36,107 bases of DNA. It comes from a virus (Duplodnaviria; Heunggongvirae; Uroviricota; Caudoviricetes). A model generated the notes under the pieces. That model did no database searches and was not told the DNA's origin. It saw nothing but the letters and a program-made list of their open reading frames with translations. The DNA lies in IMG/VR virus record IMGVR_UViG_2630968500_000009. One strand, given 5' to 3'. The position numbers and the translations under genes are program-made. Numbering within the stretch: the stretch's first letter is position 1; every line of letters starts with the position of its first letter. Positions 1 to 36,107 of this stretch are shown one piece after another.

Positions 1-71
1 ACCAAAGCATGACATCTCTGTTTCGCACCGAAGGTGACACTTCTGCTTTGCGTTGACAGGAGAAGCAGGCT

Positions 72-227
72 ATGAAGCAGCAAAAGGCGATGTTAATCGC
101 CCTGATCGTCATCTGTTTAACCGTCATAGTGACGGCACTGGTAACGAGGAAAGACCTCTGCGAGGTACGAATCCGAACCGGCCAGACGGAGGTCGCTGTC
201 TTCACAGCTTACGAACCTGAGGAGTAA
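72..227 (+). CDS. hokD: Hok/Gef-family type I membrane toxin (51 aa)
   Basis: Hand-translated ORF (below the ORF-track size cut-off): MKQQKAMLIALIVICLTVIVTALVTRKDLCEVRIRTGQTEVAVFTAYEPEE. Single TM helix plus conserved C-terminal tail typical of Hok/RelF; followed by a terminator hairpin. Confidence 0.8.
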   Translation: MKQQKAMLIALIVICLTVIVTALVTRKDLCEVRIRTGQTEVAVFTAYEPEE

Positions 228-295
228 GAGACCCGGCGGGGGAGAAATCCCTCGCCACCTCTGATGTGGCAGGCATCCTCAACGCACCCGCACTT

Positions 296-320
296 AACCC
301 GCTTCGGCGGGTTTTTGTTT
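296..320 (+). terminator. Rho-independent terminator downstream of hok
   Basis: GC stem AACCCGC / GCGGGTT with TTCG tetraloop followed by a T-run. Confidence 0.5.
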
Positions 321-443
321 TTATTTTCAACGCGTTTGAAGTTCTGGACGGTGCCGGAATAGAATCAAAAATACTTAAGTAGCGCGCAGGGATAAGAGGG
401 ATGGTCCCTTAAAGGGGAGAGCTAATTATCCGGAAGGATTCTG

Positions 444-695
444 ATGATGAACATCGAAGAACTGCGTAAAATTTTTTGTGAAGATGGCCTCTATGCTGTG
501 TGCGTTGAAAATGGAAATCTTGTTAGTCATTACCGCATTATGTGTTTGCGAAAGAATGGGGCTGCGTTAATTAATTTTGTGGATGCTCGGGTCACGGACG
601 GATTTATCTTGCGCGAAGGTGAGTTTGTCACTTCATTACAGGCATTGAAAGAGATCGGAATAAAAGCTGGCTTTTCTGCTTTTTCAGGAGAATAA
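444..695 (+). CDS. rem: Small prophage protein (83 aa), Rem-like by position
   Basis: ORF preceded by GGAAGGA Shine-Dalgarno; position between hok and the DUF968 gene matches K-12 Qin order as I recall it. Function unknown. Confidence 0.45.
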   Translation: MMNIEELRKIFCEDGLYAVCVENGNLVSHYRIMCLRKNGAALINFVDARVTDGFILREGEFVTSLQALKEIGIKAGFSAFSGE

Positions 696-761
696 ACTCA
701 TCTACAATCTTGCGCGGGGCTGAACTCCCGCTGAGTAACACCGTGCCACCGGAGAAAACCG

Positions 762-1040
762 ATGGCACGCAACGCAAAATATTACAATTCTGATAATTCG
801 CCCGTTCTTGCCTGCACGCACGGGCGGTATTCTCACGCATTCAAGTCTGAATGGTTCCAGCACCCTCCATGCACTGCAGAACAGGCCGAATGGCTGATTC
901 ATTCTTACCGCAGGCGCGGGTTCGAGGTTAAGAAAGCTCTCAGTCTCGACTATCGGCACTGGATAATCTCTGTCAGGCTGCCTTATTCCGAACGCCCACC
1001 ACGTGCGTCCCGCACTTTCCAGCAACGGATCTGGAGGTAA
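762..1040 (+). CDS. Hypothetical protein (92 aa), translationally coupled to downstream DUF968 gene
   Basis: ORF whose TAA stop (1038-1040) overlaps the GGAGGT Shine-Dalgarno of the next gene, which starts at GTG 1042. No recognisable domain. Confidence 0.3.
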   Translation: MARNAKYYNSDNSPVLACTHGRYSHAFKSEWFQHPPCTAEQAEWLIHSYRRRGFEVKKALSLDYRHWIISVRLPYSERPPRASRTFQQRIWR

Positions 1041-1041
1041 C

Positions 1042-2091
1042 GTGCGGGTATTACTTAGACCTGTTCTGGTGCCTGAGCTTGGGCTGGTGGTCCTTAAGCC
1101 GGGCCGTGAATCCATACAGATATTTCATAATCCTCGAGTGCTGGTGGAACCGGAACCAAAAAGCATGCGTAATCTGCCATCCGGAGTCGTTCCTGCCGTT
1201 CGCCAGCCGCTGGCGGAAGACAAAACATTGCTGCCGTTTTTTAGTAACGAACGGGTGATTCGTGCTGCTGGCGGCGTTGGCGCATTGTCCGACTGGCTAT
1301 TACGTCATGTTACATCCTGCCAGTGGCCTAATGGCGATTACCATCACACTGAAACAGTCATTCACCGTTATGGTACCGGCGCAATGGTGTTGTGCTGGCA
1401 CTGCGACAACCAACTGCGTGACCAGACATCGGAATCACTGGAGCTGCTTGCTCAACAAAATCTGACAGCATGGGTGATTGACGTCATCCGTCACGCAATA
1501 AGCGGTACGCAGGAGCGGGAATTATCTTTGGCTGAATTATCCTGGTGGGCGGTCTGCAATCAGGTGGTGGATGCACTACCTGAGGCTGTATCGCGTCGTT
1601 CGCTGGGATTACCAGCGGAAAAAATCTGCTCGGTGTACCGCGAAAGCGACATCGTACCGGGAGAGCAGACCGCCACCAGCATATTGAAACAACGCACAAA
1701 AAATCTTGCACCGTTGCCTTACGCCCACCAGCAACAAAAATCACCACAGGAAAAGACGGTGGTAAGCATCACCGTTGATCCAGAGTCTCCGGAATCTTTC
1801 ATGAAGCTGCCTAAACGTCGCCGCTGGGTTAAGGAGAAATACACACGTTGGGTTAAGACACAGCCGTGTGCTTGCTGCGGTATGCCAGCCGACGATCCGC
1901 ATCATCTGATTGGTCACGGGCAGGGCGGAATGGGAACAAAAGCACATGATCTCTTTGTGTTGCCTTTGTGCAGAAAGCATCACAACGAGCTGCATACGGA
2001 TACAGTGGCATTTGAAGATAAGTATGGCTCCCAACTGGAGCTGATATTTCGTTTTATCGATCGCGCGCTGGCAATTGGCGTACTGGCGTAA
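1042..2091 (+). CDS. ydfU: DUF968-family prophage protein with C-terminal HNH-like Cys/His motif (349 aa from GTG start)
   Basis: GTG start 6 nt after a strong GGAGGT SD; C-terminus has CACCG...DPHHLIGHG...CRKHHNELH resembling an HNH/zinc-finger nuclease motif; sits immediately upstream of Q. Confidence 0.6.
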   Translation: MRVLLRPVLVPELGLVVLKPGRESIQIFHNPRVLVEPEPKSMRNLPSGVVPAVRQPLAEDKTLLPFFSNERVIRAAGGVGALSDWLLRHVTSCQWPNGDYHHTETVIHRYGTGAMVLCWHCDNQLRDQTSESLELLAQQNLTAWVIDVIRHAISGTQERELSLAELSWWAVCNQVVDALPEAVSRRSLGLPAEKICSVYRESDIVPGEQTATSILKQRTKNLAPLPYAHQQQKSPQEKTVVSITVDPESPESFMKLPKRRRWVKEKYTRWVKTQPCACCGMPADDPHHLIGHGQGGMGTKAHDLFVLPLCRKHHNELHTDTVAFEDKYGSQLELIFRFIDRALAIGVLA

Positions 2092-2104
2092 GTGGAGAAC
2101 GAGC

Positions 2105-2857
2105 ATGAACCTTGAAGCCTTACCAAAATATTACTCCCCAAAATCTCCAAAATTGAGCGATGACGCTCCAGCGACAGGCACCGGTTGTTTAACAATTACG
2201 GATGTAATGGCAGCGCAGGGGATGGTGCAGTCGAAAGCACCACTTGGGTTGGCCTTATTTCTGGCAAAAGTTGGTGTTCAGGACCCTCAGTTTGCGATTG
2301 AAGGCCTGCTAAATTACGCGATGGCACTGGATAACCCGACATTGAACAAATTGAGTGAAGAAATCCGGTTACAGATTATTCCTTACCTCGTGAGTTTTGC
2401 CTTTGCTGATTACTCCAGGTCTGCGGCAAGTAAGGCTCGCTGTGAGCATTGTTCAGGTACGGGATTTTATAATGTATTGCGCGAAGTGGTGAAACACTAC
2501 AGACGCGGGGAATCTGTAATCAAGGAAGAATGGGTGAAGGAACTATGTCAGCATTGCCATGGTAAGGGCGAAGCCAGCACAGCGTGCAGAGGGTGTAAGG
2601 GTAAAGGGATTGTTCTGGATGAAAAAAGAACCCGGTTTCATGGCGTACCGGTATATAAGATTTGTGGGCGTTGTAATGGAAACCGGTTTAGTCGTTTACC
2701 GACCACGCTGGCACGACGTCATGTCCAGAAGCTGGTACCAGACCTGACCGATTATCAGTGGTATAAGGGGTATGCGGACGTCATTGGTAAACTGGTAACA
2801 AAGTGCTGGCAGGAAGAAGCATACGCGGAAGCGCAATTGAGGAAGGTGACGAGATAA
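2105..2857 (+). CDS. Q: Late-gene antiterminator Q (250 aa)
   Basis: Position directly upstream of a promoter/terminator pair and the lysis cassette; Cys-rich zinc-finger-like motifs (CEHCSGTG, CQHCHGKG, CRGCKGKG, CGRCNG); SD GGAGA before ATG 2105. Confidence 0.65.
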   Translation: MNLEALPKYYSPKSPKLSDDAPATGTGCLTITDVMAAQGMVQSKAPLGLALFLAKVGVQDPQFAIEGLLNYAMALDNPTLNKLSEEIRLQIIPYLVSFAFADYSRSAASKARCEHCSGTGFYNVLREVVKHYRRGESVIKEEWVKELCQHCHGKGEASTACRGCKGKGIVLDEKRTRFHGVPVYKICGRCNGNRFSRLPTTLARRHVQKLVPDLTDYQWYKGYADVIGKLVTKCWQEEAYAEAQLRKVTR

Positions 2858-2888
2858 ATGATTTTTGCTGAAGATGGCGACATGATGT

Positions 2889-2917
2889 TTGCATTTTTCA
2901 AAAAATATGGATAAAAT
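2889..2917 (+). promoter_or_regulatory. Candidate late promoter (pR'-like) downstream of Q
   Basis: TTGCAT (-35), 17-nt spacer, TAAAAT (-10); about 30 nt after the Q stop, where lambdoid late promoters lie. Confidence 0.3.
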
Positions 2918-2962
2918 TTTTTCAACGATGGGCTTTGTATACCCGACGTTAAGAAAAAGTAG

Positions 2963-2990
2963 AAAACCCGCTGATGAGCGGGTTTTGTGC
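2963..2990 (+). terminator. Candidate tR'-like intrinsic terminator (Q antitermination target)
   Basis: Hairpin AAAACCCGC-TGATGA-GCGGGTTTT followed by a T-rich tract, about 45 nt downstream of the candidate promoter. Confidence 0.45.
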
Positions 2991-3278
2991 TTTAAATGGG
3001 GCAATGGTAATGTTGAATCTCATCCCGGGACTCATGTCTGTTAACTTATTATTTAGCTGGTGACTTGGTTATTTGCCTGATGTTTAAAATGTTTTCTTCC
3101 AGTACAATGTCCCTAAACACAATGAGTCTGCTTATTATATTATTAGCAGAGCTATTACGGCCAAAGTACAGCATAAGCTTTTAAAGCCAATCAACCAGTC
3201 ATCAAGACAGACGGGGTTATTCATAAAAACTCTCCATGTGTGATCCGATGGGGCCTGAAATTAAAGCTTTAATATAGC

Positions 3279-3491
3279 TCATGAAAGGTAAACATTGGCA
3301 GCTGAAGGGCCACGCAGACCATTTATCCGGCAAAATTCCACGCGTAATCCGGTGGTAATTTCTTCTGCATCGCGGAGATTGAGCGCTGAAACATGAAGCT
3401 GGACATCGATACGACCATCGGATGGGGTGATAAGACCCTTGCCGCTTTTGCCGTCAAAGGTTTTGACAATTCCTGTCATTTTACGGGACAA
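3279..3491 (-). CDS. cspF: Cold-shock-domain protein, CspF-like (70 aa)
   Basis: [26 protein letters not shown]... is a divergent CspA-family member; transcribed divergently from cspB. Confidence 0.8.
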
Positions 3492-3791
3492 AAAAATTCC
3501 TTAATACTGATAACTTGGCGCACTATACACACGTTCCTGAAGAAAGCTATAGTTTTTTGATGGGGTTGAAGATGGCTGGATGTCTAAAATAAACATTGCT
3601 TCATATGTTCAACTATGCGTTAATGATTGCGTCGGTTTGAAGAACAGACGATATACGAAGTAGTTTACTAAAGCAGTTCTCATTTCAGGTGTTATTCACT
3701 TATTCCTTCTTTGAGTCTCTCCAATTAAGTACGAAGTCGTTTCTGTTATGCAAACCATTTATGCCGAAAGGCTCAAGTTAAGGAATGTAGA

Positions 3792-4007
3792 ATGTCAAAT
3801 AAAATGACTGGTTTAGTAAAATGGTTTAACGCTGATAAAGGTTTCGGCTTTATTTCTCCTGTTGATGGTAGTAAAGATGTGTTTGTGCATTTTTCTGCGA
3901 TTCAGAATGATAATTATCGAACCTTATTTGAAGGTCAAAAGGTTACCTTCTCTATAGAGAGTGGTGCTAAAGGTCCTGCAGCAGCAAATGTCATCATTAC
4001 TGATTAA
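3792..4007 (+). CDS. cspB: Cold-shock protein CspB-like (71 aa)
   Basis: [23 protein letters not shown]...VHFSAI... carries canonical CspA RNP1/RNP2 motifs; long AT-rich 5' leader. Confidence 0.8.
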
Positions 4008-4288
4008 AATTCATCGCTCGTCTGTATACGATAACGAAGAAGGCTGATGCCTGAGTAGAGATACGGACAGAGTAGTGAATATTGGATCTCTTTAATAAAA
4101 AGTAAGGAGGTCCAATACATGAAACAATGGCTAGCATATTTGGCAAAATATTAATCAGGAAAAGTATGCTAACCATTGTGGTGAAGTGCAGGTTTGCTGC
4201 ATGAATAGTTTTACAGCAGAAGCTAACTGCTGGCATGGCAAAACAAAGTGCGTAAGTGGATGACTCCCACAAAAAGCACCACAATCTC

Positions 4289-4312
4289 AAACCCGCTCAG
4301 GCGGGTTTTTTA
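4289..4312 (+). terminator. Rho-independent terminator downstream of cspB
   Basis: AACCCGC-TCAG-GCGGGTT followed by TTTTTTATT. Confidence 0.5.
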
Positions 4313-4370
4313 TTATCTGCTTTAAATATATTATTAAAATATAAAAAATACTTGTTACTAATAAAATCAA

Positions 4371-4541
4371 TCAGGCTACAGCTTTAAGATTTGTCTGGAA
4401 TATTTTGTTGCAATGAGGGCAGATCAAAAGGGCACCTTTTTGTACTCTTGAAAAACTGTGTTCTGACTCTTGGGTGCAGTTTGGGCAGGAACATTTAACG
4501 AGATAATTACGGCGTGATTTTGAGTTTTTACGTTCTGACAT
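4371..4541 (-). CDS. Small zinc-ribbon-like protein (56 aa from internal ATG)
   Basis: Two Cys pairs (CSCPNC ... CPHC); AGGAA SD upstream of ATG at 4541; antisense to the late operon between cspB and the holin. Confidence 0.3.
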   Translation of the reverse strand: MSERKNSKSRRNYLVKCSCPNCTQESEHSFSRVQKGALLICPHCNKIFQTNLKAVA

Positions 4542-4760
4542 AGGCTTTTCCTGTATAAATGGCCGTATACAGTACACTAAATATGAAAACATTTCTCGTA
4601 TTATTATTTTATATATGACTTTCTTTCAAAATAATTACCCACATTTTTAATGTGTATGTTTTTTTAGCGCCGTTGAGAACAACGTGTGCTGTCAAAACTA
4701 CCCCGTAGACTCCGATCTTTTCAAACATATTGCACCATCCGTGTACATCGGGGTGAGGAT

Positions 4761-4976
4761 ATGAAATCAATGGATAAGTTAACAACAGGTGTTGCCTATG
4801 GCACATCGGCGGGTAATGCTGGTTTCTGGGCATTGCAGTTACTCGATAAAGTAACTCCGTCACAGTGGGCTGCAATCGGTGTGCTGGGTAGCCTGGTTTT
4901 TGGCCTGCTGACGTATCTGACAAATCTTTATTTCAAGATTAAAGAAGACAGGCGTAAGGCTGCGAGAGGAGAGTAA
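4761..4976 (+). CDS. essQ: Pinholin, phage 21 S-type (71 aa, dual-start motif MKSM)
   Basis: [26 protein letters not shown]...[35 protein letters not shown] closely resembles S21 pinholin; GGTGAGGA SD; two Met codons at positions 1 and 4. Confidence 0.85.
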
Positions 4977-4980
4977 TCCA

Positions 4981-5288
4981 ATGACTCAAGACTATGAACT
5001 GGTTGTGAAAGGAGTCCGTAATTTTGAGAATAAAGTTACGGTAACTGTAGCCTTACAGGACAAAGAACGCTTTGACGGTGAAATTTTTGACCTGGATGTC
5101 GCCATGGACCGTGTTGAAGGAGCTGCGCTGGAGTTTTATGAGGCAGCAGCCAGAAGGAGCGTCCGGCAAGTCTTCCTGGAAGTAGCAGAAAAATTGTCAG
5201 AAAAAGTTGAGTCTTATCTGCAGCATCAGTACTCCTTTAAGATTGAAAATCCTGCCAATAAGCACGAGCGTCCTCATCATAAATATCT

Positions 5289-5292
<4 letters not shown>
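4981..5292 (+). CDS. ydfR: Acidic hypothetical protein interposed in the lysis cassette (103 aa)
   Basis: ORF tightly packed between holin stop and endolysin start; same position as ydfR in K-12 Qin. Confidence 0.6.
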
Positions 5293-6316
<1,024 letters not shown>

Positions 6317-6432
6317 GGTAATATTAAATCGGAACATTTACATCGCGGAATGTAAAATTTAAATAAAAAGGACTCTTCCATGAGCCAAAATTCCTGAAAT
6401 CTTAAGGGTAAGATAAAAGGTCTTAATCAGAA

Positions 6433-6441
6433 TGACACGTT
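6433..6441. repeat. IS1 target-site duplication, left copy (TGACACGTT)
   Basis: Identical 9-bp sequence immediately flanks both IS1 ends. Confidence 0.85.
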
Positions 6442-6496
6442 GGTGATGCTGCCAACTTACTGATTTAGTGTATGATGGTGTTTTTGAGGTGCTCCA

Positions 6497-6772
6497 GTGG
6501 CTTCTGTTTCTATCAGCTGTCCCTCCTGTTCAGCTACTGACGGGGTGGTGCGTAACGGCAAAAGCACCGCCGGACATCAGCGCTATCTCTGCTCTCACTG
6601 CCGTAAAACATGGCAACTGCAGTTCACTTACACCGCTTCTCAACCCGGTACGCACCAGAAAATCATTGATATGGCCATGAATGGCGTTGGATGCCGGGCA
6701 ACAGCCCGCATTATGGGCGTTGGCCTCAACACGATTTTACGTCACTTAAAAAACTCAGGCCGCAGTCGGTAA
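6497..6772 (+). CDS. insA: IS1 InsA (91 aa)
   Basis: [43 protein letters not shown]... matches IS1 InsA. Confidence 0.9.
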
Positions 6773-7194
6773 CCTCGCGCATACAGCCGGGCAGTGACGT
6801 CATCGTCTGCGCGGAAATGGACGAACAGTGGGGATACGTCGGGGCTAAATCGCGCCAGCGCTGGCTGTTTTACGCGTATGACAGTCTCCGGAAGACGGTT
6901 GTTGCGCACGTATTCGGTGAACGCACTATGGCGACGCTGGGGCGTCTTATGAGCCTGCTGTCACCCTTTGACGTGGTGATATGGATGACGGATGGCTGGC
7001 CGCTGTATGAATCCCGCCTGAAGGGAAAGCTGCACGTAATCAGCAAGCGATATACGCAGCGAATTGAGCGGCATAACCTGAATCTGAGGCAGCACCTGGC
7101 ACGGCTGGGACGGAAGTCGCTGTCGTTCTCAAAATCGGTGGAGCTGCATGACAAAGTCATCGGGCATTATCTGAACATAAAACACTATCAATAA
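6691..7194 (+). CDS. insB: IS1 InsB (167 aa; InsAB' transposase made by -1 frameshift)
   Basis: [25 protein letters not shown]... matches IS1 InsB. Confidence 0.9.
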
Positions 7195-7209
7195 GTTGGA
7201 GTCATTACC

Positions 7210-7218
7210 TGACACGTT
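7210..7218. repeat. IS1 target-site duplication, right copy (TGACACGTT)
   Basis: Direct repeat of 6433-6441. Confidence 0.85.
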
Positions 7219-7455
7219 TTATTAATAAATAAAGCTATTCTTTCATTGCTGTGTTTTTCTTTACAAAAGTAATCCTTGCTATGGGTGGTTAATCATGCGT
7301 TAATGGTGTTCTGGTTTGTTACAAATTTATCTGAAGCAGTCATTGTTATAATTTTATTATTTGTACCTCTTGAGATTTCCTTGTTGGTTTTTCTCTCTGA
7401 TATTTTTTTTCGGACCATTCTGCCCAAGGGCTAATTTCTTCAAAAGGTAATAATT

Positions 7456-7668
7456 ATGTCTAACAAAATGACTGGTTTAGTGAAATGGTTTAACCCTGAA
7501 AAAGGTTTTGGTTTCATCACGCCGAAAGATGGCAGCAAAGATGTGTTTGTCCATTTCTCAGCAATTCAGAGCAACGATTTCAAAACATTAACTGAGAATC
7601 AGGAAGTTGAATTTGGTATTGAGAACGGACCTAAAGGTCCTGCCGCTGTTCATGTAGTGGCGCTTTGA
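7456..7668 (+). CDS. cspI: Cold-shock protein CspI-like (70 aa)
   Basis: [38 protein letters not shown]...; long AT-rich leader; CspA-family motifs. Confidence 0.8.
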
Positions 7669-7873
7669 GGTAGACAATATTACAAACCATATTCACTTTA
7701 GATGCCCGTGTTGTCATGGTTCCCAGTATAGAACATCATCTTTTGATGTTTCTGACATGAATCCTTTCGGGGCAAAATGTATCTTTTGTAAATCAATGAT
7801 GATTACATTTGATAATATTTCACAATACTTAAATGCCAGCCGTCTGTCGTTGGATTTAAAAAAGTGAAAATGA

Positions 7874-7897
7874 AGGCTCCTTCGGGAGCTTTTTTGC
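7874..7897 (+). terminator. Rho-independent terminator
   Basis: AGGCTCC-TTCG-GGAGCT hairpin followed by TTTTT. Confidence 0.45.
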
Positions 7898-7939
7898 TTG
7901 GTGTCTATTCGATGGATACTCACATACTACGGTAACATC

Positions 7940-8170
7940 ATGAAAAAAATCATAGTTTTTTTTAACTCTGAACCAGCAGTGGTAGTGCCAGCGATGACTG
8001 GAGTTAACACCATCATGCGTGAATATCCAAATGGCGAAAAAACACACCTTACTGTAATGGCCGCAGGGTTTCCATCTCTGACCGGAGATCATAAAGTCAT
8101 TTATGTAGCCGCGGATCGACATGTTACTTCAGAAGAAATTCTGGAAGCAGCAATAAGGCTCTTGAGTTGA
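7940..8170 (+). CDS. Hypothetical small protein (76 aa from ATG 7940)
   Basis: ORF between cspI and gnsB; weak SD; start uncertain (the track ORF begins at TTG 7898). Confidence 0.35.
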   Translation: MKKIIVFFNSEPAVVVPAMTGVNTIMREYPNGEKTHLTVMAAGFPSLTGDHKVIYVAADRHVTSEEILEAAIRLLS

Positions 8171-8341
8171 TTTGATGCTATTGCATTGATAATTCAGGAA
8201 AATTCTCTTTGTCTGTTTGTGTAAAATTTAGACTATCGTATGTTGATTATTGCGATGTTTCATCTTATCTTTTACACGTTTGCACCATATAATCGACTTA
8301 CTGTGTAACTGGAAAGTCATAACAGACTAAAAGAGGAAATG

Positions 8342-8515
8342 ATGAATATTGAAAACTTAAAAACAAAAGCAGAAGCAGATATTTCTGAATATATAACAAA
8401 AAAAATTATTGAACTTAAGAAAAAGACCGGGAAAGAAGTTACCAGTATTCAGTTTACCGCACGGGAAAAAATGACGGGTCTTGAAAGCTATGATGTCAAG
8501 ATTAATTTAATCTGA
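8342..8515 (+). CDS. gnsB: GnsA/GnsB-family small protein (57 aa)
   Basis: Hand-translated, below ORF-track cut-off: MNIENLKTKAEADISEYITKKIIELKKKTGKEVTSIQFTAREKMTGLESYDVKINLI; AAGAGGA SD; TATAAT box at 8288-8293. Confidence 0.7.
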   Translation: MNIENLKTKAEADISEYITKKIIELKKKTGKEVTSIQFTAREKMTGLESYDVKINLI

Positions 8516-8666
8516 TGTATTCAATAATAAAATTTATCCATAAACCTCGTTTTTACGGGGTTTTGTTATATTTGAATGGTTCCGAATATCTAAATCACAA
8601 TTGTTGATGGTTTTTATTAAACCAATGCAGTCCGGCTCAGGAGTGAGAGAAGCCGGACGTTATGGT

Positions 8667-9077
8667 TTAGCGTGGTAAGATCTGTGTAGTTTTCTGGATG
8701 CTTTCAGTAAATAGTAATGAATTATCAAAGGTATAGTAATATCTTTTTTGTTCGTGGATATTTGTAACCCACCGAAAAACTCCTGCTTTAGCAAGGTTTC
8801 TTCTGTATTCCTGAAATGTGATCTCTCTGGATTTCAGCTTATTAGAGGTCGTTTCTATAAGATGCCTATCCTTTGAAAATTTGACAGACACAATGTTTTT
8901 TAGGCCCTTTAATAACACTGTATTATCATTTTTTAATACAATATGAACATTCTCTGTGGCTAAATAGTAAATGTAATGTGAGACATTGTGACGTTTTAGC
9001 TCAGAATAAAACCATTGATAGTTTAAATCGTTTCGAACTTTATCAAATATTTGTTTAAAAATGACTACCTGATCCAT
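8667..9077 (-). CDS. ydfO: DUF1398-family prophage protein (136 aa from ATG 9077)
   Basis: ORF antisense to the late operon; GGAAGG SD upstream of the internal ATG; conserved position next to cos. Confidence 0.65.
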
Positions 9078-9134
9078 AGATAAACCTTCCATGTGATATG
9101 AGGGGGCGTAGTCTGCACGATTATCTAAATTGCT

Positions 9135-9368
9135 TCAATCTGGTCTGACCTGTTTTCTGAGCAATTCAGTAATGTCACTCTTTTCTTTGTTTGCTTCAGA
9201 AGAAACTCTTTTTTCTGAGCACAGTCTCCGGCGGCAGGCTTCAATGACCCAGGCTGAGAAATTCCCGGACCCTTTTTGCTCAAGAGCGATGTTAATTTGT
9301 TCAATCATTTGGTTAGGAAAGCGGATGTTGCGGGTTGTTGTTCTGCGGGTTCTGTTCTTCGTTGACAT
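9135..9368 (-). CDS. ynfO: Ribbon-helix-helix-like small DNA-binding protein (77 aa)
   Basis: N-terminal basic stretch then NIRFPNQMIEQINIALEQKG...FSAWVIEA, resembling Arc/CopG RHH folds; immediately upstream of and co-oriented with ydfO. Confidence 0.5.
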   Translation of the reverse strand: MSTKNRTRRTTTRNIRFPNQMIEQINIALEQKGSGNFSAWVIEACRRRLCSEKRVSSEANKEKSDITELLRKQVRPD

Positions 9369-9567
9369 GAGGTTGCCCCGTATTCAGTGTCGCTGATTTG
9401 TATTGTCTGAAGTTGTTTTTACGTTAAGTTGATGCAGATCAATTAATACGATACCTGCGTCATAATTGATTATTTGACGTGGTTTGATGGCCTCCACGCA
9501 CGTTGTGATATGTAGATGATAATCATTATCACTTTACGGGTCCTTTCCGGTGATCCGACAGGTTACG

Positions 9568-9579
9568 GGGCGGCGACCT
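9568..9579 (+). other. cos: cosN cohesive-end site (GGGCGGCGACCT), with cosB-like inverted repeats downstream to about 9750
   Basis: The 12-nt lambda cohesive-end sequence preceded by ...GATCCGACAGGTTACG and followed by CGCGGGTTTTCGCTATTTATGAAAATTTTCCGG, as in the lambda genome ends recalled from memory. Confidence 0.8.
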
Positions 9580-9756
9580 CGCGGGTTTTCGCTATTTATG
9601 AAAATTTTCCGGTTTAAGGCATTTCCGTTCTTCTTCGTCGTAACTTAATGTTTTTATTTAAAATACCCCCTGAAAAGAAAGGAAACGACAGGTGCTGAAA
9701 ACGAGCTTTTGGGCCTCTGTCGTTTCCTTTCTCTGTTTTTGGCCGTGGAATGAACA

Positions 9757-10276
9757 ATGGAAGTCAACAAAAAGCAGCTGGCTGACATTTTCGGTGCGAG
9801 TATCCGTACCATTCAGAACTGGCAGGAGCAGGGAATGCCCGTTCTGCGAGGCGGTGGGAAGGGTAATGAGGTGCTTTATGACTCTGCCGCCGTCATAAAA
9901 TGGTATGCCGAAAGGGATGCTGAAATTGAGAACGAAAAGCTGCGCCGGGAGGTTGAAGAACTGCGACAGGCCAGCGAGGCAGATCTCCAGCCAGGGACTA
10001 TTGAGTACGAACGCCATCGACTTACGCGTGCGCAGGCCGACGCACAGGAGCTGAAAAATGCCAGAGACTCCGCTGAAGTGGTGGAAACTGCATTCTGTAC
10101 TTTCGTGCTGTCGCGGATCGCAGGTGAAATTGCCAGTATTCTCGACGGGATCCCCCTGTCGGTGCAGCGGCGTTTTCCGGAACTGGAAAACCGACATGTT
10201 GATTTCCTGAAACGGGATATCATCAAAGCCATGAACAAAGCAGCCGCGCTGGATGAACTGATACCGGGGTTGCTGA

Positions 10277-10302
<26 letters not shown>
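9757..10302 (+). CDS. nu1: Terminase small subunit Nu1 (181 aa)
   Basis: MEVNKKQLADIFGASIRTIQNWQEQGMPVLRGGGKGNEV... matches lambda Nu1. Confidence 0.9.
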
Positions 10303-13983
<3,681 letters not shown>

Positions 13984-28536: not shown

Positions 28537-29136
28537 ATGCGTAAACTTTATGCCGCCATTTTGTCCGCAGCCATTTGTCTGGCCGTATCCGGTGCGCCTG
28601 CATGGGCGTCTGAACATCAGTCCACGCTGAGCGCGGGGTATCTTCATGCCTCGACGAACGTTCCCGGCAGCGATGATCTGAACGGGATTAACGTGAAATA
28701 CCGTTATGAGTTTACGGACACACTGGGGCTGGTGACGTCATTCAGCTATGCAGGAGACAAGAATCGCCAGCTTACCCGTTACAGCGATACCCGCTGGCAT
28801 GAAGATTCCGTGCGTAACCGCTGGTTCAGCGTGATGGCGGGGCCGTCTGTGCGCGTGAATGAATGGTTCAGCGCGTATGCGATGGCGGGTATGGCTTACA
28901 GCCGTGTGTCGACTTTCTCCGGGGATTATCTCCGCGTAACTGACAACAAGGGGAAAACGCACGACGTGCTGACCGGAAGTGATGACGGTCGCCACAGCAA
29001 CACGTCTCTGGCGTGGGGAGCTGGCGTGCAGTTTAACCCGACCGAATCCGTGGCCATTGATGTCGCTTATGAAGGCTCCGGCAGTGGTGACTGGCGCACT
29101 GACGGGTTCATCGTGGGTGTTGGTTATAAATTCTGA
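28537..29136 (+). CDS. lom: Lom-family outer-membrane beta-barrel protein (Ail/PagC family), 199 aa
   Basis: Signal peptide ([13 protein letters not shown]) and C-terminal ...[20 protein letters not shown] as in lambda Lom; N-terminal half differs from the lambda Lom I recall. Confidence 0.8.
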
Positions 29137-29163
29137 TTAGCCAGGTAACACAGTGTTATGACA

Positions 29164-29189
29164 GCCCGCCGGTTCAGGCGGGCTTTTTT
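29164..29189 (+). terminator. Rho-independent terminator after lom
   Basis: GCCCGCC-GGTTCA-GGCGGGC followed by TTTTTT. Confidence 0.5.
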
Positions 29190-29200
29190 GTGGGGTGAAT

Positions 29201-32200
29201 ATGGCAGTAAAAATTTCAGGTGTACTGAAAGACGGCACAGGAAAACCGGTACAGAACTGCACAATCCAGCTGAAAGCAAAACGTAACAGTACCACGGTGG
29301 TGGTGAACACGCTGGCATCTGAAAATCCGGATGAAGCCGGGCGTTACAGTATGGACGTTGAGTACGGTCAGTACAGCGTTATTCTGTTGGTGGAAGGATT
29401 CCCGCCGTCACATGCCGGGACCATCACAGTGTATGAAGATTCCCGACCCGGTACGCTGAATGATTTTCTCGGTGCCATGACGGAGGATGATGCCCGTCCG
29501 GAGGCACTGCGCCGTTTTGAGCTGATGGTGGAAGAGGTGGCGCGTAACGCGTCCGTGGTGGCACAGAACACGGCAGCCGCGAAGAAGTCAGCCAGTGATG
29601 CCAGCACATCAGCCCGTGAGGCGGCAACCCATGCGACTGATGCTGCAGGCTCAGCACGCGCAGCCAGCACGTCAGCCGGACAGGCCGCGTCGTCGGCTCA
29701 GTCAGCGACTTCCAGCGCAGGAACGGCATCAACAAAGGCCACTGAAGCATCAAAAAGTGCTGCCGCTGCAGAGTCCTCAAAAAGCGCGGCAGCTACCAGT
29801 GCCAGTGCCGCGAAAACGTCAGAAACGAATGCTGCAGCGTCACAACAATCAGCAGCCACTTCTGCATCCACCGCGACTACGAAAGCGTCAGAAGCTGCCA
29901 CCTCAGCCCGGGATGCGGCGGCTTCAAAAGAGGCGGCAAAATCATCAGAAACGAACGCATCCTCGAGCGCCAGTAGCGCAGCTTCCTCGGCAACAGCGGC
30001 AGGAAATTCCGCGAAGGCGGCAAAAACGTCAGAGACGAACGCCAGGTCTTCTGAAACGGCAGCGGGACAGAGCGCCTCGGCTGCGGCAGGCTCAAAAACA
30101 GCGGCTGCGTCGTCTGCCAGTGCAGCGTCAACAAGTGCCGGGCAGGCCTCAGCCAGTGCCACCGCCGCCGGAAAATCGGCAGAAAGCGCCGCATCGTCTG
30201 CTTCAACAGCCACAACGAAGGCTGGCGAAGCCACTGAACAGGCCAGCGCAGCAGCGAGGTCTGCTTCCGCAGCGAAGACATCCGAAACGAACGCGAAAGC
30301 GTCGGAAACCAGCGCAGAATCCTCAAAAACGGCTGCCGCATCGTCAGCCAGTTCGGCGTCGTCATCGGCATCATCTGCGTCTGCTTCAAAAGATGAGGCG
30401 ACCAGACAGGCGTCAGCAGCGAAGGGTAGCGCCACGACGGCATCCACGAAGGCGACAGAGGCAGCTGGCAGTGCGACGGCAGCAGCTCAGAGCAAAAGTA
30501 CGGCGGAATCTGCAGCAACGCGCGCTGAGACAGCGGCAAAACGGGCAGAGGATATTGCATCCGCCGTGGCGCTTGAGGATGCGAGCACGACGAAAAAGGG
30601 GATAGTACAGCTCAGCAGTGCGACCAACAGCACTTCCGAGTCACTGGCGGCAACGCCAAAAGCCGTTAAGGCCGCGTATGACCTGGCTAACGGGAAATAC
30701 ACCGCACAGGATGCAACGACAGCACAGAAAGGGATAATCCAGCTAAGCAGTGCGACCAACAGCACGTCTGAAACGCTGGCGGCAACGCCAAAGGCAGTAA
30801 AAGCAGCCAATGACAATGCTGAGAAACGTCTGCAGAAAGATCAGAACGGTGCGGATATCCCTGGCAAAGACACCTTTACGAAAAATATTGGTGCCTGCCG
30901 TGCCTTCGGTGGGTCAGTAAGCACAACAACAGGAAACTGGACGACTGCACAGTTTATCGAGTGGCTGGATTCTCAGGGAGCATTTAACCATCCATACTGG
31001 ATGTGCAAGGGTTCCTGGTCTTATGGCAATAATAAAATCATTACTGATACTGGCTGCGGTAATATTCATCTCGCCGGAGCTGTCATTGAAGTAATGGGGA
31101 TAAAGTCAGCGATGACGATCCGCATTACCACACCGACCACCTCCACTGGTGGTGGAACAACTAACGCCCAGTTTACCTATATTAATCACGGAACAGATTA
31201 TTCACCTGGCTGGCGAAGGGACTATAACTCCAGAAATAAGCCAACGGCATCAGAGATCGGGGCGTTACCGTCAGGTGGAACAGCAGTATCATCAGTTAAT
31301 CTGTCTTCAAAAGGTCGGGTAACCGCGCTGACAGACAATACGCAGGGGGCAACAGGTCTTGAGTTATACGAGGTGTATAACAACGGATATCCAACAGCGT
31401 ATGGAAATATCATTCACCTGAAAGGGATGACAGCCGTTGGCGAAGGTGAGTTACTCATCGGCTGGAGTGGTACAAGCGGTGCTCATGCTCCGGCATTTAT
31501 TCGTTCACGACGGGATACGACCGACGCAAACTGGTCGCCGTGGGCGCAGCTTTACACCTCGGCTCATCCTCCTGCAGAGTTTTATCCAGTCGGTGCACCA
31601 ATCCCGTGGCCATCAGATACCGTTCCGTCTGGTTATGCCCTGATGCAGGGGCAGACTTTTGACAAATCTGCTTACCCGAAACTTGCAGCCGCTTATCCGT
31701 CAGGCGTGATCCCTGATATGCGTGGCTGGACGATTAAGGGCAAGCCCGCCAGTGATCGAGCCGTATTGTCTCAGGAACAGGACGGCATTAAATCACACAC
31801 CCACAGCGCCAGCGTATCCAGTACGGATTTGGGGACGAAAACCACATCGTCGTTTGATTACGGCACTAAATCCACGAATAACACTGGTGCGCATACCCAT
31901 AGTGTTAGCGGTACGGCTGCTTCAGCCGGTGCACATACCCATTCGATGACATTTGTTTCAGGTGGTTCCAGTGGTGCTCCGGGAAGTGGATCACCTGATT
32001 ACTCTAAATACAGTGTTAACACTTCTTCTGCAGGCGCTCATACGCACTCTGTATCGGGTACTGCTGCAAGCGCAGGTGCACACGCACATACTGTCGGTAT
32101 TGGTGCTCATACGCACTCCGTTGCGATTGGTTCACATGGACATACCATCACCGTTAACGCTGCTGGTAACGCGGAAAACACCGTCAAAAACATCGCATTT

Positions 32201-32224
32201 AACTATATTGTGAGGCTTGCATAA
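29201..32224 (+). CDS. stf: Side tail fibre protein Stf (about 1007 aa from ATG 29201)
   Basis: [26 protein letters not shown]... N-terminus as in lambda Stf; long Ala/Ser/Thr-rich shaft; C-terminal HxH repeats (GAHTHSVSG...). Confidence 0.85.
29530..30610 (+). repeat. Degenerate tandem repeats encoding the Ala/Ser/Thr-rich Stf shaft
   Basis: Recurrent units such as AAKTSETNA / [16 protein letters not shown] at roughly 100-130 bp periodicity; low-complexity composition. Confidence 0.5.
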
Positions 32225-32799
32225 TGGCATTCAGAATGAGTGAACAACCACGGACCATAAAAATTTATAATCTGCTGGCCGGAACTAATGAATTTATTGG
32301 TGAAGGTGACGCATATATTCCGCCTCATACAGGTCTGCCAGCAAACAGTATCGATATTGCACCGCCAGATATTCCGGCAGGCTTCGTGGCTGTTTTCAAC
32401 AGTGATGAGGCATCGTGGCATCTCGTTGAAGATCATCGGGGTAAAACGGTTTATGACGTGGCTTCCGGCGACGCGTTATTTATTTCTGAACTCGGTCCGT
32501 TACCGGAAAATGTTACCTGGTTATCGCCGGGAGGGGAATATCAGAAGTGGAACGGCACAGCCTGGGTGAAGGATACGGAAGCAGAAAAACTGTTCCGGAT
32601 CCGGGAGGCGGAAGAAACAAAAAACAGCCTGATGCAGGTAGCCAGTGAGCATATTGCGCCGCTTCAGGATGCTGCAGATCTGGAAATTGCAACGGAGGAA
32701 GAAATCTCGTTGCTGGAAGCATGGAAAAAGTATCGGGTATTGCTGAACCGTGTTGATACGTCAACTGCACAGGATATTGAATGGCCAGCACTGCCGTAG
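32224..32799 (+). CDS. tfa: Tail fibre assembly chaperone Tfa (191 aa)
   Basis: Start overlaps stf stop (ATAATGG); sequence resembles lambda/K-12 Tfa proteins. Confidence 0.85.
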
Positions 32800-32896
32800 G
32801 GTAAAACATATAAATTCTATAATTAGATGTATCTTTCCATTTACGGCAAGGAAGGTGGCTTGGAAGACGTAAAGCATCTCACACCGAGATTATTTT

Positions 32897-33487
32897 TTAT
32901 ATGTCAGGTGTCTGAAGTTTTGCTTTGGCTCTTAAAATGGTTTGCCGCGAGGTTTTGAATTCCCGGGCAATGGCACTTATACTTACACCTGACTTAATTC
33001 GTTCGAATACCACCTGTTTCTGTTCTTCATTTAACACAGGTGGTCGACCAAAACGTTTCCCTGCGCCCCGGGCTCTTACTATCCCGGAATGAGTGCGTTC
33101 AAGTAAAAGGTCTCGTTCAAATTCAGCGACTGCTGAAATTACTTGCATCATCATTTTTCCTGTTGGACTGGTCAGGTCAATGCCCCCCAATGCTAAGCAA
33201 TGCACTCTGATACCTGTTTCGGTCAGTTGTTCCACTGTTTTCCTGATATCCATTGCATTACAACCAAGGCGATCCAGTTTTGTCACAATCAATTGATCAC
33301 CACATTTCAGGCGAGCAAGCAACCGGTTAAAACCAGGACGCTCACTGGTTGCTGCTGAGCCGCTAATGTGTTCTTCGATTATTTGCTGAGGTTTGATTTT
33401 AAAACCTGCACTTTCGATTTCCCGGCGTTGATTTTCGGTGGTCTGATCCAGCGTTGATATCCGACAGTAAGCAAAAATTCGAGACAT
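32897..33487 (-). CDS. pinQ: Serine recombinase, resolvase/invertase family (196 aa)
   Basis: N-terminal catalytic motif (YCRISTLDQ with the active-site Ser) and C-terminal HTH; sits beside tfa as pinQ does in Qin-type prophages. Confidence 0.75.
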
Positions 33488-33803
33488 AGTGAGACTCTAT
33501 ACGAAATTGGTGTTCATATCATAATGCATCTCAGAAAATAATTTTGATTATTTTTGTGCATATTTGTATGTACACGTTCGAAAATAAACGAATGCGTATG
33601 CAACCCCGTAATTTTGGTGAGACCCAAAATCGATTTTGTGAAAAATGGCTTTAACTCGGTTTGTTTTTCGAGTTCCGGGCGGACTCAAGGAAGAAGAATA
33701 GTGTTGCGTGTTATTTTAACCAGATTTCAAGTTGTTTGGTCGTGGAAAAGTGGAGCAAAATGTTGTTAAAGTGGAAAAATGATAAAAAAGTAAGTTTATT
33801 ATA

Positions 33804-34037
33804 TTACATTTTACCATTTAAATTTTGGTTGTCTTTAAGAACTGATATCGCTGTTTGTAATAATTCTTTGTTATCCAGCCATGATTTTTTCTTTATGTTT
33901 CCTTCAATGTAATCAAGCAATGTTCTGGTATTGATAGGTCTTCCCTGTTTTGCTACTTCCACTACAGCATCCCCTAGGATAATTCTTACTTCAGGAAGCT
34001 GCGCAGGGAACCACTTTAGGGTGTCTTTTGATTTCAT
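33804..34037 (-). CDS. ydfK: Small protein YdfK/YnaE-like (77 aa from internal ATG)
   Basis: MKSKDTLKWFPAQLPEVRIILGDAVVEVAKQG...; AAGGA SD upstream of ATG 34037; AT-rich long leader. Confidence 0.55.
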   Translation of the reverse strand: MKSKDTLKWFPAQLPEVRIILGDAVVEVAKQGRPINTRTLLDYIEGNIKKKSWLDNKELLQTAISVLKDNQNLNGKM

Positions 34038-34823
34038 GAAGATATTCCTTAAAATATTATTGATTTTCATTGCGATATTGTATGTCTGATTCAGGATATG
34101 TTGACTTATACATCGGTTTTGTCTGGGTTATTGGATATGCCAATCCCTAATTTTATTAGGGCATGACTAAAAATGCTGAATATGATAAGGAGAGATGTGA
34201 TTATCAGTATGCTGTTCATATAGCCTCGAATTAGTAATGTGTTATATATGATATAGTTGACAATTTTTATCTTGGGTGTTCTTAAAGTTCGTAGATAAAC
34301 ATTGTCGTTTCAGGTATACAGGAATGCTAACAGGTGGCAGCAAAAATCAGGCGGTTTATGGCGCAAGCTGAAGCGGCAACTGCAAACTATCTTATGCAGA
34401 GACTCTACACGGATTGGGTTTAAAAGTATACATAGATAACAGTTTTTATCTGAAAAATAAAAATATCAAGGTGATATAGCCTATATGCCTTTGATGCGGA
34501 GGAATGAATGTGATGGGAGTGATGTATCTGAATAGTTGAAAAACCGCAGACACGCCTTATGCAAGAACGTGCTGCGGTTGGCTGGTAAATTTTTCGATAG
34601 TGTGAGTATTGAATGATTTCCAGCCGTTCTTGATTTTACGCATAAATCCATGAAAAAACTACTTATCTGTTGGGGAGTTTTTTTTGGGGCATATATGGGA
34701 CATAAATAGGCCCCAGATAGACACTGAGATCGAACTTAGGATGCTTTTTAAAAAATGCAACTATCTGAAAAAACCTAGAAAACGCCAAGGAAACCACAGG
34801 ATGGGAAAAAACACCTGTGAATT

Positions 34824-36107
34824 ATGGATTTCCAGTTATATTCGCTCGGCGCAGCGTTAGTGTTTCATGAAATATTTTTTCCTGAATCATCAACGGCAAT
34901 GGCGTTAATTCTGGCAATGGGAACCTACGGTGCAGGTTATGTGGCGCGTATTGTCGGAGCATTTATTTTCGGCAAAATGGGCGACAGAATAGGGCGTAAA
35001 AAAGTGCTCTTTATTACCATCACCATGATGGGGATCTGTACCACCTTAATTGGTGTGTTACCGACCTATGCACAGATTGGTGTTTTTGCACCCATCTTGC
35101 TGGTGACGTTGCGTATTATTCAGGGGTTGGGTGCAGGTGCGGAAATTTCCGGTGCCGGTACGATGCTGGCGGAATATGCGCCAAAAGGTAAGCGCGGAAT
35201 TATCTCCTCATTTGTGGCTATGGGAACTAACTGCGGAACCTTGAGCGCAACGGCAATCTGGGCCTTTATGTTCTTCATTCTCAGTAAAGAGGAACTGCTG
35301 GCGTGGGGATGGCGTATACCGTTCCTGGCGAGCGTTGTCGTGATGGTCTTTGCTATCTGGTTGCGTATGAATCTGAAAGAAAGCCCGGTCTTTGAGAAGG
35401 TTAACGACAGTAACCAACCGACAGCAAAACCTGCACCTGCTGGTAGCATGTTCCAGAGCAAATCCTTCTGGCTGGCAACAGGGCTGCGTTTTGGTCAGGC
35501 GGGTAACTCCGGGTTAATTCAGACTTTCCTTGCAGGCTATTTAGTGCAGACGTTATTGTTTAACAAAGCAATTCCAACAGATGCATTGATGATCAGTTCG
35601 ATTCTCGGCTTTATGACCATTCCGTTCCTTGGTTGGTTATCCGATAAAATTGGTCGCCGGATCCCGTATATTATTATGAATACCTCCGCGATTGTGCTGG
35701 CATGGCCAATGCTTTCTATCATTGTAGATAAAAGCTATGCCCCGAGCACCATTATGGTTGCACTGATTGTGATTCATAACTGTGCGGTGCTGGGATTATT
35801 TGCTCTGGAAAACATTACCATGGCAGAAATGTTCGGCTGTAAAAACCGCTTTACCCGGATGGCTATTTCTAAAGAAATTGGTGGTCTTATCGCTTCCGGT
35901 TTTGGTCCTATCCTGGCGGGTATTTTCTGCACCATGACGGAATCCTGGTATCCGATCGCCATTATGATCATGGCATATTCAGTGATTGGTTTAATCTCTG
36001 CGCTGAAAATACCAGAGGTGAAAGACCGTGATTTAAGTGCGCTGGAAGACGCTGCGGAAGATCAACCGCGTGTTGTAAGAGCTGCGCAACCTTCCAGAAG
36101 TCTGTAA
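34824..36107 (+). CDS. ydfJ: MFS transporter, metabolite:H+ symporter family, 5'-truncated at prophage junction
   Basis: Starts inside the conserved first TM segment (MDFQLYSLGAALVFHEIFFP...) and has the GDRIGRKK loop motif; an in-frame stop lies directly upstream (34818-34820), so the native N-terminus (about 25-30 residues) is absent. Confidence 0.7.
   Translation: MDFQLYSLGAALVFHEIFFPESSTAMALILAMGTYGAGYVARIVGAFIFGKMGDRIGRKKVLFITITMMGICTTLIGVLPTYAQIGVFAPILLVTLRIIQGLGAGAEISGAGTMLAEYAPKGKRGIISSFVAMGTNCGTLSATAIWAFMFFILSKEELLAWGWRIPFLASVVVMVFAIWLRMNLKESPVFEKVNDSNQPTAKPAPAGSMFQSKSFWLATGLRFGQAGNSGLIQTFLAGYLVQTLLFNKAIPTDALMISSILGFMTIPFLGWLSDKIGRRIPYIIMNTSAIVLAWPMLSIIVDKSYAPSTIMVALIVIHNCAVLGLFALENITMAEMFGCKNRFTRMAISKEIGGLIASGFGPILAGIFCTMTESWYPIAIMIMAYSVIGLISALKIPEVKDRDLSALEDAAEDQPRVVRAAQPSRSL

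Follow-up and report, generated by a model that had tools for sequence, protein, structure and literature searches.

How does a transporter gene come to begin inside its own first membrane-spanning segment, directly beside a prophage, and what is the roughly 780 bp of AT-rich DNA that lies between it and a ydfK-like gene? These questions are raised by one end of the window, by which we mean the whole stretch of 36,107 nucleotides of viral DNA analysed here (IMG/VR record IMGVR_UViG_2630968500_000009). An initial annotation had proposed that the prophage integrated inside the transporter gene and displaced its 5' end, and that the AT-rich stretch holds the long leader of the ydfK-like gene together with the attachment-site core. 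The first proposal is borne out by what follows and the second has to be redrawn. We are highly confident that the junction is the attR of a Qin-type (mEp460-like) lambdoid prophage inserted in ydfJ, and that the adjoining 780 bp is phage DNA made up of four parts. The junction is already annotated and published, and it is a prophage junction of the textbook type.

A transporter gene without its N-terminus

Two features mark the host edge of the prophage:

34824..36107, plus strand: ydfJ', gene of an MFS transporter (MHS family) from which the promoter and the first 28 codons are missing (TIGR00883 profile, PGAP and comparison with K-12)
34818..34820, plus strand: TGA, phage-derived, in frame with ydfJ and one codon ahead of its ATG (read from the sequence)

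The open reading frame is opened by the ATG at 34824, runs for 427 amino acids to 36107, the last base of the window, and is E. coli ydfJ minus its first 28 codons, with 1 amino acid different from K-12 b1543. It scores 453.5 bits against the metabolite/H+ symporter profile TIGR00883 (cut-off 443.45), where the alignment covers profile positions 7-400, and its alignments to the ShiA and ProP models start at positions 37 and 40. The start of the reading frame thus falls within the first conserved transmembrane segment, as the initial annotation had it, and the profile alignments leave transmembrane segment 1 incomplete, with half of it missing. The in-frame stop that had been placed just upstream is also present, and the codon is TGA.

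Both prophage ends, the empty host site and the free-phage site

The window itself stops short of the left end of the prophage; that junction was read from a near-identical public genome, strain G5 (NZ_CP060065.1), which represents here whatever of the prophage lies beyond the window (positions in it are given as L003). G5 matches window positions 11108-36107 at 99.9% and positions 1-12769 with only two mismatches. Its prophage starts just after rspB, ~51 kb upstream of the window's junction, and continues with an integrase, an excisionase, an exonuclease and the dicB-dicA region before reaching the genes found at the start of the window. Two further features are needed here:

34822..34832, no strand: attachment core TTATGGATTTC, an 11-bp direct repeat common to the left junction, which holds the ATG (Met29) of ydfJ
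L003 8049-9329, minus strand, outside the window: site-specific tyrosine integrase of 426 amino acids, with PF12167 (Arm-DNA-bind_2) and PF00589 (Phage_integrase)

The displaced 5' end of the transporter gene lies beside this integrase. Between rspB and the integrase, G5 encodes a 36-aa ORF, MTIEKHERSTKDLVKAAVSGWLGTALEFMDFKSHAC (L003 7919-8029), which contains the 28 missing YdfJ residues and 5 that are phage-derived (KSHAC). When residues 1-28 of this ORF are placed in front of the window ORF, the resulting 455-aa protein scores 462.9 bits against TIGR00883 and aligns from profile position 1. The longest string common to the two junctions is the core itself, at 34822-34832 in the window and L003 8001-8011 in G5. 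The missing N-terminus and the short shared repeat, which the initial annotation had suggested looking for at the far end, are therefore both there, in a genome near-identical to the window.

The first best-matching genome, that of strain 2452, proved unusable for the left end, as it holds a heavily deleted remnant. In that strain (L001, 159-1725) the Qin-type prophage is reduced to tfaQ-pinQ-ydfK-ynfT, joined to a capsid-gene fragment and a truncated rspA; this arrangement shows that a deletion crossed the left junction.

The host site and the phage site can each be rebuilt from the two junctions, and both rebuilt sequences exist in nature. Joining the host flanks of the left and right junctions gave an 800-bp attB test sequence, which is found as a single piece at 100% identity in many genomes; at least 80% of it occurs in one place in 2,010 of the 5,426 complete E. 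coli genomes, including a few with an IS1 insertion. In strain M217 this sequence is annotated as an intact 1,368-bp ydfJ (455 aa) between rspB and ydfI, so the unoccupied allele proposed for comparison does exist, at full identity. Joining the two phage flanks gave a 583-bp attP test sequence, contiguous over all 583 bases at 98.3-99.7% identity in the phages mEp460_ev081, PhiR42_1, HannyBb and Tritos. The gene order in mEp460_ev081 is tail fibre, tfa, serine recombinase, ydfK homologue, attP, integrase and excisionase, and window positions 32800-34832 are colinear with the free phage at 99.6% identity, the match ending at the last base of the core. Host attB identity starts at 34822, and phage homology stops exactly at 34832.

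The arrangement is widespread. A 2.6-kb region spanning the junction recurs at 100% identity in many E. coli chromosomes and has at least a part-match in all 5,426 complete genomes, 1,985 of which carry the same right junction (at least 80% of the region in one place). RefSeq gives the order across it as pinQ, ydfK, ynfT, ydfJ (missing its N-terminus), ydfI, ydfZ and rspR.

One might suppose instead that ydfJ was truncated by a deletion, an IS event or an assembly artefact. Prophages of the Qin region are often decayed, as the strain 2452 remnant fused to rspA illustrates, and IS elements are present within this prophage as well. Such an origin is, however, at odds with an 11-bp repeat that is exact at both ends, with an attB and an attP that are both natural contiguous sequences, and with the sharing of the junction by 1,985 independent complete genomes, and we give it practically no chance of being correct. 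The reciprocal contiguity of attB and attP, the core at both ends and the end of homology at 34832 together rule out a deletion or an assembly artefact, and they establish site-specific integration into ydfJ.

The course of events can be read from this. The phage went into the host gene ydfJ at codons 27-31 through the action of a tyrosine integrase, and the crossover fell somewhere inside the 11-bp identity TTATGGATTTC that the two attachment sites have in common. The rspAB-side promoter and codons 1-28 have thereby come to lie ~51 kb off at the other prophage end, where they form the 36-aa ynfP ORF, and the remaining 427 codons sit directly behind phage DNA with its in-frame TGA and no evident ribosome-binding site. 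Reading inward, the 780 bp between ydfJ' and ydfK comprise a 238-bp P arm with candidate integrase sites, a strong predicted minus-strand terminator hairpin, a conserved 315-bp candidate promoter/leader region and the small membrane-protein gene ynfT.

Fate of the truncated transporter

To judge from the DNA around its start, ydfJ' is most likely inactive, because what the phage contributes there is a stop codon, and a workable ribosome-binding site is missing. The nearest AGGA is ~21 nt upstream of 34824, so that no Shine-Dalgarno sequence is suitably spaced, and PGAP labels the gene 'incomplete, missing N-terminus' and treats it as a pseudogene. It could nevertheless be argued that ydfJ' is alive, starting at the retained Met29 ATG and expressed by read-through or from a promoter in the phage end, and that it yields a working or altered 427-aa transporter. 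The core does keep this ATG in frame, and the 427-aa form is kept as a CDS in K-12 RefSeq ('putative transporter YdfJ'), such that residual expression is possible. The 427-aa ORF also still scores above the TIGR00883 cut-off, and the junction is retained in ~37% of complete E. coli genomes with ydfJ' ~99% conserved. Against a living gene stand the loss of half of transmembrane segment 1, seen in the starting points of the TIGR00883, ShiA and ProP alignments, the absence of a Shine-Dalgarno sequence at usable spacing, the removal of the host promoter side to ~51 kb away, the pseudogene status given by PGAP, and a published analysis in which the promoter is lost (PMC6379469). We consider a functional ydfJ' unlikely, with a small chance of proving right, and favor loss of ydfJ function as the probable outcome of integration.

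A composite AT-rich stretch

On the phage side of the core, GC content is 28-40% over 33400-34800, against 44-53% in ydfJ and the tail genes. The features of this stretch, ordered from ydfK toward the core, are:

33804..34037, minus strand: ydfK, 77-aa cold shock protein YdfK (RefSeq annotation of identical DNA)
34038..34105, minus strand: spacer between ynfT and ydfK, 68 nt, AU-rich and unstructured, with AAGGA 8 nt ahead of the ydfK ATG
34106..34219, minus strand: ynfT, 37-aa hydrophobic small protein of the YnaM/YnfT family (RefSeq, Pfam and NCBIfam)
34220..34535, minus strand: conserved non-coding region, candidate promoter and leader of a putative ynfT-ydfK transcript
34536..34583, minus strand: predicted hairpin terminator (stem 34544-34577), followed by UUUUUC, at the border of the ynfT-ydfK-pin module and the att arm
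34584..34821, no strand: P arm (attR side), 238 bp, specific to this integrase type (diverges from Rac, contiguous in free phages)
34685..34715, no strand: candidate arm-type repeats within the P arm, TGGGGCA at 34685 and TGGGACA at 34696 (direct, 11 bp apart) and TGGGGCC at 34709-34715 (inverted)

The ydfK-like gene that had been placed at the prophage edge is real. Its product is identical to K-12 YdfK and 1 amino acid off YnaE of Rac, and it matches no Pfam or NCBIfam family; the mechanically called ORF reaches 34070 and exceeds the annotated gene. The spacer upstream of it folds at -1.5 kcal/mol, weaker than shuffled sequence, and includes a promoter-like match, TCAACA-16-TACAAT at 34104-34077, that is a consensus match only. 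YnfT is recognized by both PF23676 (96.2 bits, cut-off 27) and NF041477 (63.9 bits, cut-off 35), and its sequence is identical to those of K-12 YnfT and YnaM. YnaM, the Rac copy, is among small proteins detected experimentally, and the identical small ORF of the ydfJ/ydfK locus is listed too (PMC6001520).

Upstream of ynfT, positions 34220-34535 agree at ~99% identity with the DNA that precedes ynaM in the Rac prophage of K-12, and a 365-bp region within the 780-bp stretch is 99% identical to the Rac prophage. A consensus scan returned a promoter-like match at 34454-34425, and 7 sites in all against 5.4 in shuffled sequence, which is no excess; since such matches are no commoner than in shuffles, we claim no transcription start. 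A published SELEX-predicted ydfK promoter, TTCCCA-16-GATAAT (PMC3946193), was considered and rejected as it maps to 35199-35226 on the minus strand, inside ydfJ and more than 1 kb from ydfK. Short, Hfq-bound RNAs derived from the 5' leader have been reported for ydfK and ynaE (PMC5089854, PMC4152368), and both genes have been reported among cold-shock-related transcripts (PMC7430671). These reports fit a regulated ynfT-ydfK transcript, in which the two genes would be cotranscribed.

The same reports speak for a rival reading, in which ydfK would have a single cold-responsive 5' leader as long as the whole 780-bp stretch, similar to the cspA thermoregulator leaders. The stretch is AT-rich, as that reading would have it, and two true cspA-type leaders lie elsewhere in the window. 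However, no Rfam family matches at gathering level over 33400-34900, where the cspA thermoregulator (RF01766) is absent even at E <= 1, and the stretch is interrupted by the conserved small-protein gene ynfT and by a strong predicted minus-strand terminator at 34544-34577. Its outer 238 bp, moreover, form an att arm that differs between Qin and Rac, though ydfK and ynaE are near-identical, and a promoter located there could therefore not be common to the two genes. A single leader is thus very improbable. Of the long leader suggested in the initial annotation, then, the published leader transcripts of ydfK show that a leader does exist, yet untranslated RNA does not make up all 780 nt, because ynfT, the putative terminator and the P arm lie inside it. 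The attachment core, which that annotation had presumed to lie in the stretch, is found at its very edge, overlapping the ydfJ ATG, and the remainder attributed to a leader is composite.

A 21-nt imperfect direct repeat (17/21) brackets the ydfK-ynfT module, with GAGACTCTATACGAAATTGGT / GAGACTCTACACGGATTGGGT at 33491-33511 and 34399-34419, the one copy immediately ahead of where pin starts and the other upstream of ynfT. The repeat may be a scar left when the module was acquired, or it may be due to chance.

A predicted terminator at the module border

The hairpin folds at -20.7 kcal/mol (z = -3.8), and none of 200 shuffles folded as well. Together with the UUUUUC that follows it, this fold is predicted to be an intrinsic terminator. 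A simple terminator scan did not list it, because its stem is bulged. When the region upstream of ydfK and ynfT was searched against Rfam at permissive thresholds, the result was noise and a sub-threshold match to the CssrB sRNA (RF02799; 24.4 bits against a gathering threshold of 76). We rejected this candidate: its 3' hairpin alone aligns well, and this is the terminator hairpin.

The location of the hairpin depends on the state of the phage. On the circular phage genome, the strand that carries int reaches it ~290 nt downstream of that gene, after crossing the attachment site, while in the prophage it lies between the host junction and ynfT-ydfK. The tI/sib element of lambda occupies the same position, downstream of int across the attachment site. 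A tI/sib-like layout is accordingly found here, with a stable hairpin and U-tract on the int strand past att, and integration parts the hairpin from int. It is conceivable that the hairpin is a shared, portable int terminator or retroregulator, functionally akin to tI/sib, situated at the Qin/Rac exchange border of the ynfT-ydfK-pin module. In the prophage it might then insulate a cold-induced ynfT-ydfK operon from transcription arriving from the host junction, and the Hfq-bound ydfK/ynaE leader RNAs might be its products. We offer this extended role as a tentative proposal that is probably not correct.

The P arm and candidate integrase sites

Homology to Rac ends after the hairpin, at ~34583, which identifies the outer 238 bp as the integrase-specific P arm. 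In mEp460_ev081, PhiR42_1, HannyBb and Tritos this arm is contiguous with the core and with the integrase-side arm. TGGGGCA-type repeats recur on both sides of the core. Besides the three copies in the P arm, the P' arm carries TGGGGCA twice, 11 bp apart (L003 8071 and 8082), and the Rac arm has three copies of GGGGCA. These repeats are candidate arm-type binding sites for the integrase, which has an arm-DNA-binding domain; the motif, whose background in the window is 0.55 per kb, was picked after inspection of the data. In the P' arm, the stretch that separates the core from the TGGGGCA pair includes TATCAAATAGTTA, a perfect match to the IHF consensus (L003 8027-8039, beyond the window). Perfect matches to this consensus number only two in the whole 36-kb window, and the P arm within the window holds no strict match, the one near the core being found in the P' arm only.

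Other features of the prophage

The two cspA thermoregulator matches elsewhere in the window (RF01766, at gathering level) fall at 3631-4023 and 7310-7695, both on the plus strand, with 159 and 113 bits, and are the leaders of the prophage's cspB-like and cspI-like cold-shock genes. With ydfK, these genes make several cold-induced loci on one prophage.

Mobile elements are present as well. A copy of IS1 at ~6500-7260 (ORF 6691-7194) sits between the lysis genes and cspI, as it does in G5, and the early region of G5 has IS66-family and ISNCY elements. In view of these insertions a defective prophage is probable, even though the structural genes are all present. Rfam IS009 (RF02111) also matches with 221 bits at 32567-32765 on the plus strand, within the 3' part of the tail-fibre assembly gene.

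The side tail fibre encoded at 29195-32224 on the plus strand is 1009 amino acids long, with a very long low-complexity center rich in Ala, Ser and Thr, and His-rich GAHTHS repeats near its C-terminus. A Pin-type serine invertase (Resolvase and HTH_7 domains; 32897-33487, minus strand) is encoded beside a single stf-tfa set, and no convincing inverted crossover sites for it were found in 29000-33700.

Significance

The junction explains how, in about one E. coli strain in three, ydfJ and probably also the downstream ydfI came to be severed from the rspAB promoter. The coordinates given here for the parts of the 780-bp stretch, namely the arm, the putative terminator, the leader, ynfT and ydfK, should be useful for work on the ydfK/ynaE cold-shock response and on excision of Qin-type prophages. 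This locus also serves as a calibration case, as a split gene and a prophage junction were rightly read, from sequence alone, out of an ORF that starts inside a transmembrane segment. The junction itself opens no new question.

Comparison with known systems

The closest known system is Qin of K-12, for which a published analysis describes site-specific integration into the 5' end of ydfJ and the resulting loss of 28 N-terminal codons and of the promoter (PMC6379469). In MG1655 the 'cryptic prophage Qin' is annotated at 1632277-1652745, flanked by ydfJ (427 aa) and ynfP, and YnfP and the 37-aa YnaM/YnfT are both among listed E. coli small ORFs (PMC6001520). Both junction sequences, the 11-bp core, YdfK and YnfT are identical between K-12 and the prophage studied here, YdfJ' is 1 amino acid off, and the gene order at this end (ynfT-ydfK-pinQ) is the same. 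The two prophages differ in their completeness. What remains of Qin in K-12 is 20.5 kb long, without head or tail genes and with its integrase broken (the intQ pseudogene), whereas the copy in the window is far fuller and includes terminase, portal, tail and J as well as the 1009-aa side tail fibre. Judged from G5, the whole prophage would be ~51 kb long, with an intact integrase and excisionase and also IS insertions.

The free phages mEp460_ev081, PhiR42_1, HannyBb and Tritos share the P arm-core-P' arm at 98.3-99.7% identity and the same gene order. They differ in being unintegrated genomes, and the comparison with them covered the att-proximal 8.6 kb. Rac of K-12 (pinR-ynaE-ynaM) is alike in its inner portion and unlike in its outer one: the pin-ydfK-ynfT module, the region upstream of it and the terminator-like hairpin are ~99% identical, and the Rac arm carries a similar GGGGCA repeat, but from ~34584 outward the two are unrelated, and neither the arm nor the core nor the host target (ttcA; att site in ttcA/ttcC) is the same. 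Rac also replaces the N-terminus of its target gene, as opposed to simply truncating it (PMC6379469).

The more distant parallel is with lambda and concerns layout. In lambda attP, int lies by the P' arm, an IHF site lies between the core and the P' arm sites, and there are P-arm sites as well. Here, too, int adjoins the P' arm, and an IHF consensus falls between the core and tandem candidate P' arm sites. Candidate P-arm sites lie ~110-140 bp out, and a hairpin stands past att on the int strand, integration parting it from int. In sequence there is no similarity to the lambda att/sib region, and the target differs in kind, lying here within a coding gene and not between genes as in lambda.
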